This document shows, in pieces, positions 13,224 through 25,729 of a stretch of 26,886 bases of DNA. The notes under the pieces were generated by a model. The model did not search any database. It saw only the letters and a list, made by a program, of their open reading frames with translations, and was not told the DNA's origin. Made by a program: the position numbers and the translations under genes. Location: IMG/VR virus record IMGVR_UViG_2737471860_000002, positions 1 through 26,886 of that record. One strand, given 5' to 3'. The first letter of the stretch is position 1, and the number at the start of each line of letters is the position of its first letter. Origin of the DNA: a virus. Taxonomy: Duplodnaviria; Heunggongvirae; Uroviricota; Caudoviricetes.

Positions 13224-14129
13224 TTATGCCGGGGTGGTGATGTACGGGCTGTCCACGATCTCCACATCCTTGTACCAGATGTTGGAATCGCCGCCGTTAA
13301 CCAGCATGGCGTCAATAATGAGCTTCGCGTCCGCACGGTTTTTCGGCCCCACCACAAGGGTGGTCGGGCGGATGCCCAGTGGTTCACCGTTGGTGCCCTT
13401 CATGCCCCGCAGTAACTCATTGGCTTTTTTGTAGTTCTCCACCGTCAGTGCCGCACGGGAACCGACGGCGGTCTGCCAGAAGCCGAAGCCTGCATTACAG
13501 CGACCGTCCACCCCGTACAGGAATTCGTTATTCTTGAAGGTGTGCTCGCTGTTCAGATCGTCCAGGGCTTCAAACTTAAAGGCGCGTCGCGTCTGCCAGA
13601 TAATGGGTTTCAGTACCTGCGACTCATCAATCAGGAACCACGGCTCACCCTTGTCTGATGCCGGGGTGCCGACAACGTTGCTGTACGTGCCGTCACCCAG
13701 CGGGTGGTCTTCATCAAAGAAGTTCTGGCCGTCAAAGCACAAAGTTTTGAATCCGGCACACAGCAGGGCGTAACACAGCTTGTCCGGGAACACGGCTGTC
13801 ATACGTCCATAGCGTTCAGCAGTAATGCTGTACTGACCAATCTGGTCATCTTCAATGTGTTCGCGCTTAACGCGAATGGAACTTTCCCAGAGTTTGTTGG
13901 TGATGGTGTAACCATAACCGTCCAGCGTTGCCAGCTGACGCTCACCGACCCATTCTTTGATGTCCGGTAAATCTTTCATCCAGCCGTAAGTGTTGGAGGC
14001 GGACGAACTCGGCACCTCAGAAGCAATGCGATTCCACTGCGGTTCGACACCACTCAGTCCACGGGTAAAGGCGGCGCTCAGGCAGGTGGTCAGTGCATGA
14101 AGGATTTCAGAACTGACAGTCTGTCCCAT
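13224..14129 (-). CDS. Major capsid protein (Mu gpT-like)
   Basis: 301-aa ORF immediately after the protease/scaffold gene (1-nt overlap); size and position match the Mu-type major head subunit. Confidence 0.75.
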   Translation of the reverse strand: MGQTVSSEILHALTTCLSAAFTRGLSGVEPQWNRIASEVPSSSASNTYGWMKDLPDIKEWVGERQLATLDGYGYTITNKLWESSIRVKREHIEDDQIGQYSITAERYGRMTAVFPDKLCYALLCAGFKTLCFDGQNFFDEDHPLGDGTYSNVVGTPASDKGEPWFLIDESQVLKPIIWQTRRAFKFEALDDLNSEHTFKNNEFLYGVDGRCNAGFGFWQTAVGSRAALTVENYKKANELLRGMKGTNGEPLGIRPTTLVVGPKNRADAKLIIDAMLVNGGDSNIWYKDVEIVDSPYITTPA

Positions 14130-15091
14130 TAGTTGTTCTCCTGTTTTGGTTTAGCGGCGAGGAACTCTTCCCCGGTAATACCCATGCTGCGACACATCGC
14201 CAGTTCGGCGTCGGTCAGTGTCTGCGCGGGTTTATCCTTGCCCTGGCTGGGCTTGTCGTTGTTCACCAGCGGCTGTGTACCTCTGGTGTATTCCGCAAAC
14301 TGTTTACGGCCTTCTTCCGTGCGACAGGTGGCAAGGAACATGTCACGGTTTGCCGGGGCCACTTTTCCGGCTTCGATGGCCGCATCCACAAGCGCTTCTG
14401 CTTCCTTCTCTTCAAGTTGCTGAAGGCGTTGTTCTGCGGTTTCGGCACGGTTCAGTGCCAGATTGTGGGTTTCCACCGGCACAAACTTCGTCAGGTCAGG
14501 TGTCTGTGCGCGGTTCAGCGCCACCTGTTCGTTCTCCTGAAGTTGTTTAATGGCGGCCACGGTATCGTCCACCGTGGCAGATTCAGCCAGCCCAAGCAGG
14601 CCGGTGATTTGCACAGGTACTGTCATCGGGTTTTTCTCCGTATTCAGTGCAGGAAAATCCAGGTTAGGTTTGTTGGTCAGCCCGACGCTGGACAGGCGTG
14701 TCACCACACCCTCCGCGTCATGGAAAAACGCCGGGCTGTAATAGCGGTAGCGGCGCTCGCTCAGCATCCAGCGGGCGGACTCACTCCAGGCAACACGGCC
14801 TTCAATGGTGCCGCTGTCCGTCACCCGCAGTTCTTCAACCCAGCCATACGCCGGAGCATCTTCACCACGCGGGCCTTTAATTTCGGTGGCGTGTTCAATG
14901 TCCACCGGAATTTTGATGTCGGACGAACGGGCAACCACCTCATGCGGATTGCGGTTAATCCACGTCCGGCCATCGCGCCCGGTAAACTCACCCGCAGGAA
15001 CGAGTTCAAACCATTCCGGCAGTTGAACAGGTGTCAGCTCAGGGATAGGTTCTGGCAGGGAAAAACACAGCGCCAGCAGTTCCGGTTGCAT
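14129..15091 (-). CDS. Head maturation protease with C-terminal scaffold domain (Mu gpI-like); candidate internal scaffold start at 14626
   Basis: 320-aa ORF; C-terminal half is coiled-coil-like. In-frame internal ATG at 14626 preceded by GGAG about 10 nt upstream. Confidence 0.7.
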   Translation of the reverse strand: MQPELLALCFSLPEPIPELTPVQLPEWFELVPAGEFTGRDGRTWINRNPHEVVARSSDIKIPVDIEHATEIKGPRGEDAPAYGWVEELRVTDSGTIEGRVAWSESARWMLSERRYRYYSPAFFHDAEGVVTRLSSVGLTNKPNLDFPALNTEKNPMTVPVQITGLLGLAESATVDDTVAAIKQLQENEQVALNRAQTPDLTKFVPVETHNLALNRAETAEQRLQQLEEKEAEALVDAAIEAGKVAPANRDMFLATCRTEEGRKQFAEYTRGTQPLVNNDKPSQGKDKPAQTLTDAELAMCRSMGITGEEFLAAKPKQENN

Positions 15092-15140
15092 GTCAGTCTC
15101 CGTCGTTTTGGGTTACCGACGGTCAGTATGCGGGAGGCAG

Positions 15141-15164
15141 AAAAAAAGCCGGATTTACCGGCTT
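15141..15164 (-). terminator. Intrinsic-terminator-like hairpin (7-bp stem AAGCCGG/CCGGCTT, 5-nt loop) followed by a U7 tract on the minus strand; copy A of a duplicated 38-bp element
   Basis: Stem 15146-15152 pairs with 15158-15164; the plus-strand A7 at 15141-15147 is the minus-strand T-run. A near-identical element occurs at 22840-22877. Confidence 0.55.
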
Positions 15165-15184
15165 CACTGAAAACAGGGAAATAC

Positions 15185-15227
15185 CCCTTCAAAACCCCTT
15201 CAAAAACGCCACAGCGCCTTCAAAAAC
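15185..15227. repeat. Three direct repeats of CCTTCAAAA(A) in the F-I intergenic region
   Basis: Read directly: ccccttcaaaa / ccccttcaaaaa / gccttcaaaaa within 43 bp. Confidence 0.6.
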
Positions 15228-19730: not shown

Positions 19731-19867
19731 GTGTGCCCTCCTGTTGCTCACTACGCTGTGAACTTTCGTATGCAGATTTCAGCGCGCCACTCTGGATTTC
19801 ACGCCATGTCAGGTTGTGCGCCAGACGGCGGAGTTCATCACGGGACGCTTTACTTATCGGATTCTTT

Positions 19868-20167
19868 TTACGGTTCACGACGGCCCCCGTCTTCAGTTCC
19901 CGGTGTTTTCAGACCGGCGTATATTTCTTCGCGAACGGACCGGATATCCTTACCCAGCAGCTTCCACAGCCGCGCACATGCCGGTGATGAACGCAGGGCA
20001 CATTTCATGGGGGTATCCGGTGCATCCGGGTTCCATGGCTTTCCTGTATGTTGTTCGTATGCACGGACAATGGCGTTTTGCTCGATATCTGCCATGACAA
20101 GGCAGTACGCCAGCTGCCGCACGACGGCCCGTTCTCCGCGACTTAACGGCTTCAGTTTTCGGGTCAT
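19868..20167 (-). CDS. Hypothetical protein (99 aa)
   Basis: ORF tightly packed after the 97-aa gene (3-nt spacing); no family recognised. Confidence 0.5.
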   Translation of the reverse strand: MTRKLKPLSRGERAVVRQLAYCLVMADIEQNAIVRAYEQHTGKPWNPDAPDTPMKCALRSSPACARLWKLLGKDIRSVREEIYAGLKTPGTEDGGRREP

Positions 20168-20169
20168 GC

Positions 20170-20463
20170 TCAGTCTCTCGCACGGGGTTTTTTAACGCCC
20201 GGCACACCGGACAGGCCATTTGCCACATCCTCGCCGCTGCCGGTGATTTCAGCCACGTAACAGCCGCCCACATCAGACAGACGAACCAGCCCCTGCTCGC
20301 GCAACCATGCAAGCTGGGTGCGTACCACATCACGGGATACCTTATGACCGTAAGCCTGAAGGCAGGTCTGCAACACGGATTCATTCGCGCTGTCGCCACA
20401 GTCCAGCAGGGAACGCAGCAACACAAGACGACGGTCTTCAGTGAGGATCTCTTTCATCGCCAT
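20170..20463 (-). CDS. Hypothetical protein, possible winged-helix DNA-binding fold (97 aa)
   Basis: TAATG-type overlap with the upstream gene; RRLVLLRSLL...VSRDVVRTQLAWLREQGLV looks wHTH-like. Inference only. Confidence 0.5.
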   Translation of the reverse strand: MAMKEILTEDRRLVLLRSLLDCGDSANESVLQTCLQAYGHKVSRDVVRTQLAWLREQGLVRLSDVGGCYVAEITGSGEDVANGLSGVPGVKKPRARD

Positions 20464-20768
20464 TAATTTTTTTCCTTTAACTCGTTCTCTAATAACAAAT
20501 CACTGATGCGGGATACCTGGCGGATGGATGGCCCCAGCTCTTTGATTTCTCCCCGCAGGTTGCTGATATCCAGTTGCAGACGGTGGAACTCATCACGATC
20601 AGGTAGCTGATGTACCTGGCTTTCCATCACCGACACGCGGGAACGCAACAAATCAAACTCTTCGCGTTTGACGTACGTCTTCGCCAGAATCAACTGAAGC
20701 AGGTTTATTGCTGTCATTAACAGCGCCCACAGAATGGGCCAGTTGGCTCTGATCATTTCCCAGGACAC
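20463..20768 (-). CDS. Small membrane protein with N-terminal TM helix and coiled coil (i-spanin-like or Mu-specific membrane protein)
   Basis: 101 aa; hydrophobic WPILWALLMTAINLLQLILA followed by a heptad-like charged region. Confidence 0.5.
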   Translation of the reverse strand: MSWEMIRANWPILWALLMTAINLLQLILAKTYVKREEFDLLRSRVSVMESQVHQLPDRDEFHRLQLDISNLRGEIKELGPSIRQVSRISDLLLENELKEKN

Positions 20769-20980
20769 GTCTTCCTCCTGCGTTCCCGCATCTGCTGACA
20801 GTCAATACAGGTCACCACATCCGGCAGCGCCGCAAGGCGCTGTACCGGAATAACGTTCCCGCAGTCATTGCAGAAGCCCCGACTGTGGGGCGCTTCTTTT
20901 GTCCGTATCTGCCAGGCTTTAACGACGCTCTGACGCTCGTTCAGAACCACTTCACTGATGCGGTCGATTTCGTCGGTCAT
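20753..20980 (-). CDS. TraR/DksA-family C4 zinc-finger protein
   Basis: 75 aa with CNDCG...(17 aa)...CIDCQ, the CxxC-x17-CxxC spacing characteristic of this family. Confidence 0.7.
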   Translation of the reverse strand: MTDEIDRISEVVLNERQSVVKAWQIRTKEAPHSRGFCNDCGNVIPVQRLAALPDVVTCIDCQQMRERRRKTCPGK

Positions 20981-21585
20981 TTCGGCCCCGCAGATATTTT
21001 GTGACGACTTGATTTGCTGTAACGGGCAAAGCCGTCAAGGGTTCGCACGCCGAGATAGCCCAGCGCAGGGGTAAGCAACATCAGCGTGATATCCCAGTCC
21101 GGTGATGGCATATGCAGCGTGATACCTCTGGCACCGGCAATGGCTCCGGCAATCTGGCCGCAGGAAAGCAACAGCACATAGGCAAGACTGCTGTAACAGG
21201 ACAGGCGGGCCAGCAACGGGCGCGTCTGGCGCACATAGCTGTCCGTGGCGTTGTCACCATTGCGGATGGTTTCCTGCTGTTCGTGGTGTGCGGCCTGCTG
21301 ATCAGCCAGCACCAGCTTCTGCCGTTCCACCTCCAGTTGTTGCAACTGAATTTTCAGGGTTTCCAGCTGCATCAGTTGCTCCGGTGACAGCATCACCAGC
21401 TTTTGTTCCAGAATGCGTTGCTGTTCAGCCACCGGCAGGCTTTCCCGGACGCTTTCCACCATACCGGCCACCGAGTCAGCGGCGGCAGATGTACTGCCAC
21501 CAAACCAGCGCCCGACGGAACGAATCAGCCCCGGCCCGGCTTTCAGCAGAACAGAGGCGATGCCTGAAAGGGTTAACGGATCCAT
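20977..21585 (-). CDS. Hypothetical lysis-region protein with central coiled coil and two C-terminal hydrophobic segments
   Basis: 202-aa ORF; 4-nt overlap with the downstream TraR-like gene; composition read from translation. Confidence 0.5.
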   Translation of the reverse strand: MDPLTLSGIASVLLKAGPGLIRSVGRWFGGSTSAAADSVAGMVESVRESLPVAEQQRILEQKLVMLSPEQLMQLETLKIQLQQLEVERQKLVLADQQAAHHEQQETIRNGDNATDSYVRQTRPLLARLSCYSSLAYVLLLSCGQIAGAIAGARGITLHMPSPDWDITLMLLTPALGYLGVRTLDGFARYSKSSRHKISAGPK

Positions 21586-21983
21586 GAATCCCCCTTATGA
21601 AAACGGCGCTGATGTTTATAAAGTGCCGCGCAAAAAATACCGCCCAGCCAGAACGCCAGCTGATAAGGCTCCTTCAGATAAAGAATGCCGAATGTCAGCA
21701 TGAAAAAACCAACGGCCCAGACCACCCATGACCACACGACAATTCGAAGGGAAGCGGCCCGGAAACGCCTTTTGGGTTGCAGGCGATAAGGTACGTTGCC
21801 CAGCTGGAAACTGTGAATCAGACAGAGTGTCGCGCCGTATGCCAGCACCATGACCGCAAACGCCCGCCATCCGGCAAAACAGCTCGCCAGAAAAAGTACT
21901 GTCGACAGCCCCAGAAACGACCACTGGCACAACATAAAGCGGGAGTAAATAACGCGAACAAAAAGACTATTCATTCTGTGCAT
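21573..21983 (-). CDS. Polytopic membrane protein (about 4 TM segments), holin-like candidate
   Basis: ORF track gives a longer 193-aa version; I favour the start at 21983 (MHRMNSLFV...), with AAGGA about 9 nt upstream, because the N-terminal extension overlaps the 75-aa ORF and looks non-protein-like. Confidence 0.5.
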   Translation of the reverse strand: MHRMNSLFVRVIYSRFMLCQWSFLGLSTVLFLASCFAGWRAFAVMVLAYGATLCLIHSFQLGNVPYRLQPKRRFRAASLRIVVWSWVVWAVGFFMLTFGILYLKEPYQLAFWLGGIFCAALYKHQRRFHKGDSWIR

Positions 21984-22194
21984 TGAGTTTTTCCTTGTAC
22001 TTCTGGCACTGCCAGAAAATGTCCCGTGTATCCACGGAGTTCCAGCCACGCATGTAGTAGCTGGCGTGTGTGCCGTCATGGCCGGTATAGTCCAGCGGTT
22101 TCGGGGGCGGACCTCCGGCCATGCGGTGCAGAACCTCCTGACGCAGGCGGTCACGCCGCCCGGCTTTCAGTGAGGCATCCCAGCCTTTACCCAT
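21967..22194 (-). CDS. Small basic hypothetical protein (75 aa) immediately after the endolysin
   Basis: 8-nt overlap with the endolysin stop, consistent with translational coupling. Confidence 0.45.
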   Translation of the reverse strand: MGKGWDASLKAGRRDRLRQEVLHRMAGGPPPKPLDYTGHDGTHASYYMRGWNSVDTRDIFWQCQKYKEKLNAQNE

Positions 22195-22792
22195 ATCCCC
22201 CCCGCGTGGCGGACATGATGCCTGGAGGGGTATTGATGATTTCCAGACAGGCGTCGGTCAGCTTTTCCATGCGGTTAAACCATCCGTTCAGGTATTTGCC
22301 CTGGGCGGGTTTTGATTTGATGATGTCGGCATAAAAGCGGGAACGACGGACAATGCAGCGGGTCAGCAACCAGTCCGGGGTGGACAGGCTCACGGCCTTA
22401 CGGGTACGCGGGCCGATGATGCCGTCAGCATCCACATCAGCGGCTTCCTGCAAAATCCTGATGGCTTTTTTAACGCCATGCTGAACCGCCGCATCGAACA
22501 CAAACATCGCCACGCCATCAGGCCACTGGTCACATCCGGCAGGCAGCCAGTAATCGCGCCAGTAAATCTGCGCAACCTGTTCGCGGGTCAAATCCCTGAT
22601 GCGGGTATCCGGTTTGCCGTCGCCGTTGACATCAGTTTTGCCATCAATCACACCGTCGCGGCGGTCAGAAATGCCGTATTTGGTTTCACCGCCACGGTCA
22701 GTGGGGTCATTGACATAGACGCCTTCGATATCGGGACGCAGAATAAAATTCAGCGCATGCTCAAAGGCTGGGGAGAATTTTTGATTTTCCAT
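22187..22792 (-). CDS. Endolysin, GH108-type lysozyme with C-terminal peptidoglycan-binding domain
   Basis: 201 aa; N-terminal ...DIEGVYVNDPTDRGGETKYGISD... matches the GH108 signature (EGGY, NDP.D.GG.T..GI) as I recall it; first gene after the Mor-like gene. Confidence 0.75.
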   Translation of the reverse strand: MENQKFSPAFEHALNFILRPDIEGVYVNDPTDRGGETKYGISDRRDGVIDGKTDVNGDGKPDTRIRDLTREQVAQIYWRDYWLPAGCDQWPDGVAMFVFDAAVQHGVKKAIRILQEAADVDADGIIGPRTRKAVSLSTPDWLLTRCIVRRSRFYADIIKSKPAQGKYLNGWFNRMEKLTDACLEIINTPPGIMSATRGGYG

Positions 22793-22804
22793 AAAAGCAC
22801 CTGT

Positions 22805-22831
22805 GAAGCAGATTTAAACGTGGTCTGCTTC
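22805..22831 (-). promoter_or_regulatory. Hairpin (8-bp stem GAAGCAGA/TCTGCTTC, 11-nt loop) immediately upstream of the endolysin ribosome-binding site
   Basis: Inverted repeat read directly at 22805-22812 and 22824-22831. Confidence 0.4.
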
Positions 22832-22847
22832 ATGGTGCCGGAGGCAT

Positions 22848-22871
22848 AAAAAAAGCCGGATTTACCGGCTT
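22848..22871 (-). terminator. Intrinsic-terminator-like hairpin plus U7 tract directly downstream of the Mor-like gene; copy B of the duplicated 38-bp element
   Basis: Stem 22853-22859 pairs with 22865-22871; plus-strand A7 at 22848-22854. The wider element GGAGGCA-N-AAAAAAAGCCGGATTTACCGGCTTCA-N-TGA spans 22840-22877. Confidence 0.55.
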
Positions 22872-22877
22872 CATTGA

Positions 22878-23327
22878 TTAAGGGCGTCGTGGCGGACGAC
22901 GAACGGGGTGAGGCAGGTTCGGGGAGTGGTAGAACAAATCCGGCTGGTATTTATTACGCTCCAGACGCCGCATCCGTTTGATGGCCTTGTAGACGGTTTT
23001 ATACGTCACTCCGTAACGCTGAACCAGTTCAGGAATATTATGGCCGTTAAAATCACGCCAGATACGCATATCCCGGACAAGATTCTCCAGAATATTCCCC
23101 CTCGGAACATAAACCTGCATCCCGCCAATATGGCGACAAATCGCCACAACCAGCTCAAGGGAATGAGCAGGGTCTGCGCCAATCCGGGCCAGCTCTTTAC
23201 GCAGCAGTGCGTTCAGTTCAGAAAGTAACGCCGGATAAGCGGTGTTTTCCTGGTAATCGTTAAGATATTCCAGAACGCTGTCGTCCCGAAGGTCTTCGAA
23301 TAAATCCTGCTCTTTCATCTGTTTCAT
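22878..23327 (-). CDS. mor: Mor/C-family transcriptional activator
   Basis: 149 aa; strong resemblance by memory to Mu Mor (DLF.DL.DD..L..L, ALLAELN.LLR.EL.R.G.DPAHSLE.VVAIC.H.GG.QVY.PRG, RD.RIW.DFNG.N..EL...YGVT..TVYKAI.RMRR); lies directly after gemA as in Mu. Confidence 0.7.
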   Translation of the reverse strand: MKQMKEQDLFEDLRDDSVLEYLNDYQENTAYPALLSELNALLRKELARIGADPAHSLELVVAICRHIGGMQVYVPRGNILENLVRDMRIWRDFNGHNIPELVQRYGVTYKTVYKAIKRMRRLERNKYQPDLFYHSPNLPHPVRRPPRRP

Positions 23328-23875
23328 ACAGCAATTCTCCCGCTGTTTCGTGCGCGGGCATATGCACTGGTCAGTGCATCATAGCCGCGCAGCTCCCGCC
23401 CGGATGGGCTTACAGGTAAAGGCACACCATGTCGGGCAAAGGCTTCCCGGATGCAGCGCATATGCCACTGTTTGAGCGTTTCGAGCACAACCTGCAACGA
23501 TTTCCCGTGACACCAGGCCAGAGTGGAAACACCCTGGCCGCCATTACGTCTGGCCGTCAGGCGTTCAACGTATTTGTCCAGCGCGGCGTCGCTGCTATCA
23601 GCGACAAAGCCATCCTGAAACATCTGCTGCCAGATTTTATAAATCTTCTCGCGCGGTGTGACATACCCCTTAAAGCGACGGCGGGGATGTTTTTTCTGCT
23701 TTTTAAAACCGCGCTCTTTCATGGCATCGAGCACACGTTCCAGTTGTGCGACGGTCAGCTCGCGGCAACTGGTCTTGCCTGTGCACTGCACCAGAAAGGC
23801 GCGGTAAGTGTCATCGTCGAGTTGTAGATCACGACGGGCGACATGAATTAATTTAATCAGGGATGTGCGATTCAT
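23324..23875 (-). CDS. gemA: GemA-like protein (Mu gp16 family)
   Basis: ORF track gives a start at 23911; I prefer the ATG at 23875 (MNRTSLIKLIHVARRDLQLDDDTYRAF...), preceded by GGAGG. Position upstream of mor as in Mu. Confidence 0.65.
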   Translation of the reverse strand: MNRTSLIKLIHVARRDLQLDDDTYRAFLVQCTGKTSCRELTVAQLERVLDAMKERGFKKQKKHPRRRFKGYVTPREKIYKIWQQMFQDGFVADSSDAALDKYVERLTARRNGGQGVSTLAWCHGKSLQVVLETLKQWHMRCIREAFARHGVPLPVSPSGRELRGYDALTSAYARARNSGRIAV

Positions 23876-23895: not shown

Positions 23896-23915
23896 GGCGG
23901 TGCGGCAACACCGCC
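23896..23915 (-). promoter_or_regulatory. Hairpin (7-bp stem GGCGGTG/CACCGCC, 6-nt loop) followed on the minus strand by UCUUUUU, immediately upstream of the gemA RBS
   Basis: Inverted repeat read directly; terminator-like on the minus strand, and it also lies in the 5' leader of the plus-strand ORF. Confidence 0.4.
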
Positions 23916-23947: not shown

Positions 23948-24214
23948 ATGAAAAACAGTGAACAGCCTTATGATGTTGCAGGGTATGTCATTGCCTCAAG
24001 GTTGCTGATACTCCTTGTCAGAAAGGGGCTGATTACCGCAGAGGAAGGCAAAACGATCCTCGAAGCCGCAGCAAGCGGAGCGGCAGAGGCTCCGGCATTG
24101 AGAACAACGAATAATCCCATTCTGCAAATATCACAGCTAATCACTGATACCATCAGTTTGTTAGACCAAGATTCTGATGAATATCAAAAGCCTCAGCCAT
24201 CTGAGCATCCGTAA
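23948..24214 (+). CDS. Hypothetical opposite-strand small protein (88 aa)
   Basis: ORF track gives 23900..24214; I place the start at the ATG at 23948, with AGAGGA 8-9 nt upstream. Mixed charged/hydrophobic composition. It is the only plus-strand candidate in the window, and its 3' end is convergent with and overlaps the next minus-strand gene by about 60 nt. Confidence 0.4.
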   Translation: MKNSEQPYDVAGYVIASRLLILLVRKGLITAEEGKTILEAAASGAAEAPALRTTNNPILQISQLITDTISLLDQDSDEYQKPQPSEHP

Positions 24215-25180: not shown

Positions 25181-25729
25181 TTATTCCTCCGTCAGTGCCA
25201 CAAATTCAGAATGTTTAATGCGCTGGCATTCGGCGGGAACCGGCCCCTTCACTTCGCCAGCCAGAAGGTACACCGCAAACAAAATGCTGAATCCGTCACG
25301 GCTGCGGTGCATCTCCCACACTGATTTGAGGTCGAACAGGTCAACGTCGGTAGCCACGTTAAGTTCATTGCACAGCCAGACCGGAAAATCCGGGTATTTT
25401 TCGAGCTGATTTTCACAGTCCCGGATGCGCTTCCCGTATTCACGGCCTGCCGGTATTGTCATATCCGGCATTGCCGCCCATAACTGAATATCGCCAATGA
25501 AAAGTGTCTTTGATTCAGTTGCCCATCCTTCCGGTGGTAAGCGGTTAAACCAGACACGCGTAACCCTCTCAGGCCCTTTGTCACCAGACAAAGACACACC
25601 GCTTGCTTTCACTGATTGCTGTAATAACGCAATAATCTCACCACGCTTAACAGAAACATCTTTCAGCCAGCGAATCGTGTAAGCGTTAGCGGCTGCGTCA
25701 CTCAGTTTAAAATAAGCACATGCTGTCAT
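25181..25729 (-). CDS. Hypothetical early-region protein (182 aa), Mu semi-essential-region-like
   Basis: First ORF after gam, separated by a 96-bp AT-rich intergenic region; no family recognised. Confidence 0.55.
   Translation of the reverse strand: MTACAYFKLSDAAANAYTIRWLKDVSVKRGEIIALLQQSVKASGVSLSGDKGPERVTRVWFNRLPPEGWATESKTLFIGDIQLWAAMPDMTIPAGREYGKRIRDCENQLEKYPDFPVWLCNELNVATDVDLFDLKSVWEMHRSRDGFSILFAVYLLAGEVKGPVPAECQRIKHSEFVALTEE

Follow-up and report, generated by a model that had tools for sequence, protein, structure and literature searches.

A single Mor orthologue as the probable activator of the lysis and late operons in a Mu-like enterobacterial prophage

The Mu-like prophage in IMG/VR record IMGVR_UViG_2737471860_000002 (Caudoviricetes; positions 1 to 26,886, a stretch of 26.9 kb called here the window) carries one transcription-activator gene belonging to the Mor/C family, and that gene is followed by the endolysin gene. 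In phage Mu, Mor activates a middle operon that ends with the gene for the late activator C, which precedes lys. We propose that the prophage probably runs a two-tier lytic cascade, in which a single Mor orthologue acts at Mor-type boxes upstream of the lysis and head genes and probably at a further one for the tail/baseplate genes. The window includes neither prophage end, the repressor-transposase end and the region past the tail-fibre genes lying outside it, and all of its phage genes are on the minus strand.

The activator gene (22878-23327, -; 149 amino acids, aa; Pfam Mor PF08765, 3.5e-30) is the last of the early operon. It comes directly after gemA and overlaps it as in Mu, the activator ATG being joined to the gemA stop codon as ATGA at 23324-23327 (8781-8784 in Mu). 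The gemA (gp16) homologue itself (23324-23875, -; Pfam GemA 6.8e-34; 80% identity to Mu GemA; gp16 family in relatives) is the penultimate early gene; its mechanical open reading frame (ORF) extends to 23911, and the ATG at 23875 fits the 552-nt annotation of the relatives. An 85-bp gap (22793-22877) separates the activator gene from the endolysin gene (22187-22792, -; GH108 and PG_binding_3 domains, Pfam 1.1e-23 and 2.4e-17), the first gene after the Mor-box promoter described below. The order given in the original prediction, namely a single Mor-like gene, a terminator-like hairpin, a second hairpin and the endolysin, is thus what the sequence contains.

The activator covers positions 3-107 of the 107 in the Pfam Mor profile with 104.6 bits (cut-off 24.9) and matches phrog_532, "late transcriptional activator" (4.9e-41). 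Which of the two Mu proteins it resembles had been left to alignment, and the answer is Mor: BLASTP gives 63% identity over 127 residues with Mu Mor (4e-63) and 32% with Mu C (8e-19), the two Mu proteins being 37% identical to each other. Likewise, a PDB search returns Mor (1RR7/9L0Y) at 2e-52 over residues 7-131 and C (9L0X) at 9e-14. In the region of the recognition helix the activator reads VTYKTVYKAIKRMRRL, near to VTFNTVYKAIRRMRRL of Mor and dissimilar to LSQPQIYQIIARQRKL of C. The β-strand linkers align throughout (GGMQVYVPRG in the activator, GGGQVYIPRG in Mor, GGRQFYIPCG in C), with G68, G69, Q71, Y73, P75 and G77 invariant across the Mor/C alignment, and there are weak HTH_28/HTH_23 matches at residues 94-121. 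These comparisons identify the 149-aa protein as a Mor orthologue by descent. It does not have Mor's place in a three-tier cascade: the operon downstream begins with the endolysin gene, and there is no Mor/C gene inside it.

The C-terminus of the activator has an exact QPDLF motif followed by a 17-aa Pro/Arg-rich tail, while Mu Mor ends in QPSLL; at the N-terminus it has EQDLF, that is, only the DLF part of the motif, as in Mu Mor. It has been reported that late transcription by MuC requires two clamp-binding motifs, an N-terminal QHDLF and a C-terminal QPDLF, and that the N-terminal motif of Mu Mor is only partial (2026 study, PMC12867686). It is tempting to propose that the single activator may engage the β sliding clamp as MuC does, the QPDLF motif being the basis for this suggestion, and the exact motif fits an activator that does C's job as well. 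QxxLF occurs at the C-terminal motif position in 54 of 83 homologues. As to the Pro/Arg tail, YHSPNLPHPVRRPPRRP (22878-22931, -), it is limited to a subclade from Escherichia coli and Salmonella, and elsewhere the homologues stop at the LF of the motif or shortly past it.

A second Mor/C gene was sought with profiles built from 83 homologues together with the Mor and C proteins of Mu, and with a second set built from the three reference proteins alone, against all stop-to-stop frames of at least 25 aa in six frames (hmmsearch), and with Mu C by phmmer. In the 26.9-kb window the sole match was the activator frame itself (22881-23378, -; 1.9e-70), the next having E > 2; the same searches recovered both Mor (1.4e-62) and C (1.5e-43) from Mu. 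The six-frame profile search likewise found one Mor/C ORF, and no second, in each of three complete relatives: the E. coli PSS-15 and STEC1575 prophages, which are about 95% identical to the window (inserted in aaeB and between pduF and pduA, respectively), and Klebsiella phage Kp4866-3. There was again one per locus, with no second within 10 kb on either side, in 13 further loci from seven genera (Pluralibacter, Raoultella, Klebsiella, Serratia, Kluyvera, Brenneria and Trabulsiella). Two small late ORFs had been named as possible C genes, and neither matches a Mor/C profile. The 97-aa ORF (20170-20463, -) is a homologue of the winged-helix protein Mu gp26 (59% identity, 4e-40; phrog_436), and the 99-aa ORF (19868-20167, -) belongs to phrog_8988, of unknown function (1e-41), without a Pfam match. 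Therefore, of the two alternatives originally offered, a C gene located elsewhere is effectively excluded by the empty search of the window and of the three complete related genomes, and a shortened regulatory cascade gains support from the same result.

The sequence after mor, TCAATGAAGCCGGTAAATCCGGCTTTTTTTATGCCTCC, aligns with the region of Mu's middle promoter (Pm), ACAGTAAAGCCGGTTAATCCGGCTTTTTTTACGTCCTC. Mu Pm is Mor-dependent by experiment (PMC4287176, PMC4390567), and the Mor dimer site consists of two 5-bp inverted repeats and a G/C-rich hexanucleotide spacer, 16 bp in all, centred at -43.5 (Ma & Howe 2015, PMC4390567). The Mu Pm bases stated by the same authors, -57G, -56T and AAA from -55 to -53, fix +1 at position 9224 of AF083977, and the Mu Mor site is therefore AGTAAAGCCGGTTAAT (AGTAA-AGCCGG-TTAAT, -51 to -36), with TATCCT as the -10. 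The corresponding Mor box of the window, AATGA-AGCCGG-TAAAT (22860-22875, -), begins 3 nt past the mor stop codon, consists of two A/T-rich arms of 5 bp around a G/C-rich spacer of 6 bp, and is the same as the Mu site at 13 of 16 positions. A box stands before lys at each of the 13 loci of the seven genera. The predicted -10, CACCAT (22832-22837, -), lies 22 nt past the box, as does TATCCT in Mu Pm, there is no -35, and the predicted +1 is at about 22824. Mu and every relative share, at this spacing, the A at position 2 and T at position 6 of the -10 hexamer and the G that comes next.

Overlapping the box is a terminator-like hairpin with a run of seven T residues (22848-22872, -), the homologue of a terminator predicted at Mu 9179-9200. 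It has an 8-bp stem with five G-C pairs and a 5-nt loop (-12.6 kcal/mol; z-score -3.5), and a 24-mer within this element, AAGCCGGTAAATCCGGCTTTTTTT, differs from its Mu counterpart at one base. The palindrome GCCGG-N5-CCGGC of the stem was considered as the Mor site and rejected, as the bases given by Ma and Howe place the site at the left arm plus the loop; relatives that have no right arm rule it out further. Judged from these alignments, the element is at once the homologue of the Mu Pm Mor operator and the early terminator. The description of a terminator-like element holds as far as the hairpin goes; it does not hold in the sense of a terminator only, since the element is also the Pm Mor-box homologue and is repeated upstream of the head genes.

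There are two exact copies of the 24-mer AAGCCGGTAAATCCGGCTTTTTTT in the window (0.00 expected in shuffles), and the repeat reaches 42 nt at 93% identity (15129-15170 vs 22836-22877). The second cassette (15129-15170, -) lies within a 188-bp gap upstream of the gene for the head maturation protease (14129-15091, -; the Mu gene I homologue, "phage protease" in relatives), which is the first gene past it. Its Mor box, AGTGAAGCCGGTAAAT (AGTGA-AGCCGG-TAAAT; 15153-15168), matches the Mu Pm site at 14 of 16 positions; the hairpin and seven-T run are at 15141-15165, and the -10, CATACT (15125-15130), has the 22-nt spacing, with a predicted +1 at about 15117. Mu carries the element once only, at Pm, and has the C-dependent promoter PI directly upstream of gene I. 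All nine distant relatives whose sequence includes the F-I gap have a box in it. At this site two of the relatives (L009 and L011) and Kp4866-3 have lost the T-run and the hairpin's right arm, while the 16-mer and GACACT at 23 nt are kept. Because the box and the -10 outlast the hairpin arm and the T-run, activator binding appears to be the conserved function and termination an optional overlay.

A degenerate consensus of the box, RRKGRARSCGGTWAAT, was used for scans at one mismatch or fewer. In the complete genome of Kp4866-3 it matches three times, each time on the coding strand: once before lys, once before I and once before W. A candidate third promoter in the window lies inside baseplate gene V (4223-4267, -), where the box AGGGAAAACGGTAAAT (4252-4267) is on the correct strand, 165 nt upstream of gene W, with one mismatch to the degenerate box and a -10, TATTAT, at 4223-4228; by our estimate about 0.05 such sites would be expected by chance per window. 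Kp4866-3 has the site as well (AGGGAAGACGGTAAAT, -10 CATTAT), the V proteins being 64% identical with an indel adjoining. Since the same DNA encodes the conserved residues GKTVN, we rate the third box as a candidate, with evidence weaker than that for the lys and protease-gene boxes. Two other matches were set aside: a palindrome match with one mismatch at 1733-1747, which lies inside a tail-fibre gene, has no T-run, left arm or -10 and is taken as chance, and a match with five mismatches on the wrong strand at 25378-25401.

Three direct repeats, TTTTGAAGG(C/G)G, are found at 15184-15226 (-), upstream of the protease-gene Mor box. At the corresponding place, relatives from other genera show repeats of a related kind, GTTTAAACGYGG, and further upstream a conserved TGTGRTACGATG that resembles an extended -10. 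In the equivalent G-I gap, Mu has a strong gyrase site. The repeats could be a counterpart of that site, or a second-factor binding site.

The proposed cascade would proceed as follows. The early operon would end with gemA and the single Mor orthologue, and early transcripts would stop at the hairpin and T-run past mor. Mor would then bind the 16-bp box that overlaps the terminator, centred near -43.5, and recruit σ70 RNA polymerase to a promoter with a -10 and no -35. From the lysis promoter, a single transcription unit would comprise the endolysin gene, the gp18 homologue, the remaining lysis genes and those for packaging and the portal, C and its lys promoter (Plys) being absent. The near-identical cassette of terminator, box and -10 would close this lysis-packaging unit and restart transcription at the head protease gene, and the probable third box in gene V would boost the baseplate and tail-fibre genes. 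One protein would thus do the work that Mu divides between Mor and C.

Alternatively, Mor might activate the lysis/packaging operon only, with an unrelated regulator encoded there (TraR/DksA, gp26 or gp18) needed for the head and tail promoters, so that three tiers would be kept. Such a regulator has a candidate in the TraR/DksA-type zinc-finger gene of the lys operon, which has no Mu counterpart; the conserved direct repeats (TTTTGAAGGSG, three copies), a conceivable binding site for another factor, are found just upstream of one box only, that of the protease gene; and the com-mom promoter of relatives has no Mor box. However, the protease-gene cassette has the identical 24-mer of box and hairpin, with the same -10 spacing as the lys cassette, and the same activator should therefore bind both. 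In addition, Mu too has gp26 and nevertheless needs C. We regard a second, unrelated regulator as improbable.

It might also be argued that the repeated element is just a duplicated intrinsic terminator, the late genes being expressed by read-through or antitermination and the Mor-like protein having some other target. Both copies do score as canonical terminators, with a hairpin and seven T residues. Yet the conservation runs 5′ into the left arm of the box and 3′ to the -10 at fixed spacing, the element is homologous to the experimentally Mor-dependent Mu Pm, and at the protease-gene site of L009, L011 and Kp4866-3 the box and -10 are present where right arm and T-run are not. This makes the terminator explanation very unlikely. 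The least credible possibility, for which we see next to no chance, is a C-type late activator encoded in a missing prophage end with all three tiers kept: the window does stop short of the repressor-transposase end and of anything past the tail-fibre genes, and relatives have com-mom with a C-box-like sequence upstream, but the two complete prophages of about 95% identity and the complete phage genome each have a single Mor/C ORF, the late promoters of the window carry Mor-type and not C-type (TTAT-N5-6-ATAA) boxes, and across the phage collection two paralogues occur in Mu-genus phages only.

Several points weigh against the two-tier cascade itself. Binding, start sites, termination and clamp use are wholly inferred from sequence; what the sequence shows directly is which genes are present, their homologies, and how the boxes read, where they lie and how far they are conserved. 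The -10 hexamers are weak, CACCAT having three of the six consensus positions. The consensus RRKGRARSCGGTWAAT was built from the same loci in which it was counted, and Kp4866-3, the sole partly independent test of it, is near the Klebsiella loci. The third box lies in a coding sequence that also specifies GKTVN, and the window has neither prophage end. Finally, in relatives with com-mom, the region upstream of com resembles the Mu C box and has no Mor box within three mismatches, so at least one late promoter is not accounted for. As a separate observation, in two related prophages (L003 3400-3522 and L019 9526-9648) the sequence upstream of com aligns with Mu Pmom, including its GATC cluster, and contains the C-box-like TTGTGATTAAATACC; 11 nt are deleted ahead of the expected -10.

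Between the T-run and the endolysin start codon there is a second, two-part hairpin (22795-22840, -), with the inner stem GAAGCAGA/TCTGCTTC; it folds at -21.2 kcal/mol (z-score -5.6), and none of 200 shuffles was as stable. In its outer stem GGCACC, from the -10 region and thus upstream of the predicted +1, pairs with the Shine-Dalgarno region of the endolysin gene, AGGTGC. A strong hairpin is possible between T-run and start codon in both cassettes, in every relative and in Mu Pm upstream of gp18, with its 5′ arm overlapping the -10/+1 region and the Shine-Dalgarno sequence covered by either its 3′ arm or its outer stem. The pairing partners vary: GGCACC/GGTGC in the window, ATGCCTGC/GCAGGCAT in Klebsiella and Raoultella, and TGATGA/TCATCA in Mu. 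Thirteen leader-hairpin sequences have z-scores of -2.3 to -5.9 despite differing inner stems, which are too divergent to align, so that per-sequence z-scores were used in place of alignment-based covariation. RNA from the predicted +1, which is without the 5′ arm, is nearly unstructured and folds at -0.7 to -6.8 kcal/mol, and read-through RNA folds at -10 to -23; the ribosome-binding site is more often unpaired in the former. We therefore raise, tentatively, the possibility of a modular, self-insulating late-promoter cassette, in which read-through RNA would mask the ribosome-binding sites of the endolysin and protease genes while Mor-started RNA would be translatable; this depends on the predicted starts. 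If true, it would be an unrecognised safeguard against premature expression of the lysis gene from early read-through, with structure and not sequence conserved across genera.

The operon under the first cassette contains a homologue of Mu gp18 (21967-22194, -; 75 aa; 70% identity, 4e-35) directly after the endolysin gene, an order found in all 11 relatives whose sequence extends that far. Mu has, in order, Pm, gp18, gp19, gp20, C, Plys and lys, with gp18 as the first middle-operon gene; in the window the Pm-like promoter is followed by lys, gp18, a membrane protein, a 202-aa protein, TraR/DksA, DUF2730, gp26 and the terminase genes. From the position of the gp18 homologue, the Mu middle and lys operons would be one unit here. 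The membrane protein is multi-pass (21573-21983, -; phrog_12596), and the 202-aa protein (20977-21585, -; phrog_1544) has a weak GTA_holin_3TM match. The lysis cassette has a cytoplasmic-type GH108 endolysin, in contrast to the signal-arrest-release (SAR) endolysin system of Mu, and DUF2730, the family of the Mu gp25 "releasin", comes after the membrane and 202-aa proteins. The TraR/DksA C4 zinc-finger gene of this lysis/packaging operon (20753-20980, -; Pfam 7.5e-11) has no counterpart in the Mu region examined, and a DksA-like gene is at the same place in Pasteurella phage Pmp9. An apparent gap of 116 bp (19752-19867, -) between the 99-aa ORF and the small terminase gene contains no Mor box; relatives annotate there a 52-aa ORF that overlaps both neighbours.

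Relatives from other genera have an additional gene between mor and the cassette (L007 10375-10872; also L006 and L008-L015). It encodes a 165-aa product with a signal-like N-terminus and resembles a moron placed last in the early operon; the window lacks it. Its position indicates that the cassette travels with lys and not with mor. Scans of the whole window against Rfam (gathering threshold) and for tRNAs gave zero matches. A conserved plus-strand ORF of 88-104 aa (23948-24214, +; mechanical ORF from 23900; phrog_8747) lies between the gp15-like gene and gemA and runs antisense to the early operon, with a bidirectional-looking hairpin (23896-23915) at its 5′ end. A reverse-strand frame of Mu (AF083977, ~7899-8189) is 53% identical to it (6e-31), at a position where the Mu GenBank record annotates only the forward-strand Mu_54.

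Comparison with Mu Mor and Pm shows how much has been kept: the 63% identical protein, the overlap with gemA, a box on the early terminator hairpin, the T-run, a -10 at 22 nt with no -35, and a gp18 homologue within the controlled operon. Unlike Pm, which is followed by gp18, gp19, gp20 and C, the promoter here precedes the endolysin and late genes directly, and there are two or three boxes per genome where Mu has one. In its proposed role the activator would resemble Mu C, which serves Plys, PI, PP and Pmom: one Mor/C activator for the lysis, head and probably tail operons, with sites near -43.5. Both also have the C-terminal QPDLF, and in both a promoter, predicted in the window, lies directly upstream of the protease gene and another, a candidate in the window, inside a tail/baseplate gene. 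The differences from C are the 32% identity, the Mor-type boxes (RRKGRARSCGGTWAAT vs TTAT-N5-6-ATAA) and the origin of the activator, which is an early-operon product here and a middle-operon product in Mu.

The closest precedents for the layout are in Pasteurellaceae. Adjacency of mor and lys without C was described in Mu-like phages of that family by Niu et al. (2015, PMC4553209), and in 3927AP2, phiMhaMu2 and SuMu (PMC4553209), as in Pmp9, a single Mor-family gene is directly followed by the endolysin, with no middle genes and no C. The 3927AP2 endolysin is also of the GH108 family. Pmp9 has the same gene order, with its DksA-like zinc-finger gene downstream, and an element of about 20 nt, TGAAACTTCACAAACTCAC, after the single activator gene and again before the protease gene; that box differs in sequence from the Mor box. 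As Pmp9 repeats its box before lys and the protease gene, the logic of one activator and two boxes would be general. The Pasteurellaceae phages have proteins far from Mu Mor, and the published ones are without com-mom. The present clade retains the Mor box of Mu and a gp18 homologue, which makes its relationship to Pm directly legible. A functional parallel outside the family is phage P2 Ogr and P4 Delta, where every late operon of a temperate myovirus is switched on by one small activator, whose sites stand upstream of promoters without a -35. These belong to an unrelated zinc-finger family with different sites and are not homologous to Mor/C.

A tblastn search with Mu C against 50,697 phage records gave 50 records with a Mor/C match. 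Two matches were present in 14, all of the Mu genus (Mu, D108, SfMu, Yersinia YpM phages and PhiR68_1), and every other Mu-like phage had one, including those of Pasteurella, Vibrio, Burkholderia (BcepMu), Pseudoalteromonas, Shewanella and Klebsiella. Mor followed by C, which had been taken as the reference layout, is thus correct for Mu but is not usual for Mu-like phages, being limited to the Mu genus in these 50 records. Prophages that cover at least 80% of the first 25 kb of the window are found in about 45 of 5426 complete E. coli genomes; by megablast, the phage collection matched only in the gemA region of Mu and SfMu-type phages, with no isolated near relative at the DNA level. The shortened cascade is therefore supported but ordinary: it is the usual layout of Mu relatives, and the prophage is a well-resolved member of a known and common arrangement.

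What this means for the family is that the textbook cascade of Mor to C to late genes would be a speciality of the Mu genus, the common Mu-like state being one Mor/C activator that acts directly on late promoters. The enterobacterial clade is useful here: since the Mor box of Mu has been kept in it, together with the early terminator and a gp18 homologue, one can follow the rearrangement nucleotide by nucleotide. Between gp18 and the remaining late genes, Mu differs from this clade in having gp19, gp20, C, Plys and another endolysin/spanin set. For annotators, RRKGRARSCGGTWAAT followed by 22-23 nt and a -10 offers a tool for locating late promoters in such prophages. With Mor-type DNA recognition and the exact QPDLF of MuC in one protein, the activator would lend itself naturally to testing the recent claim of sliding-clamp use by Mor/C proteins.

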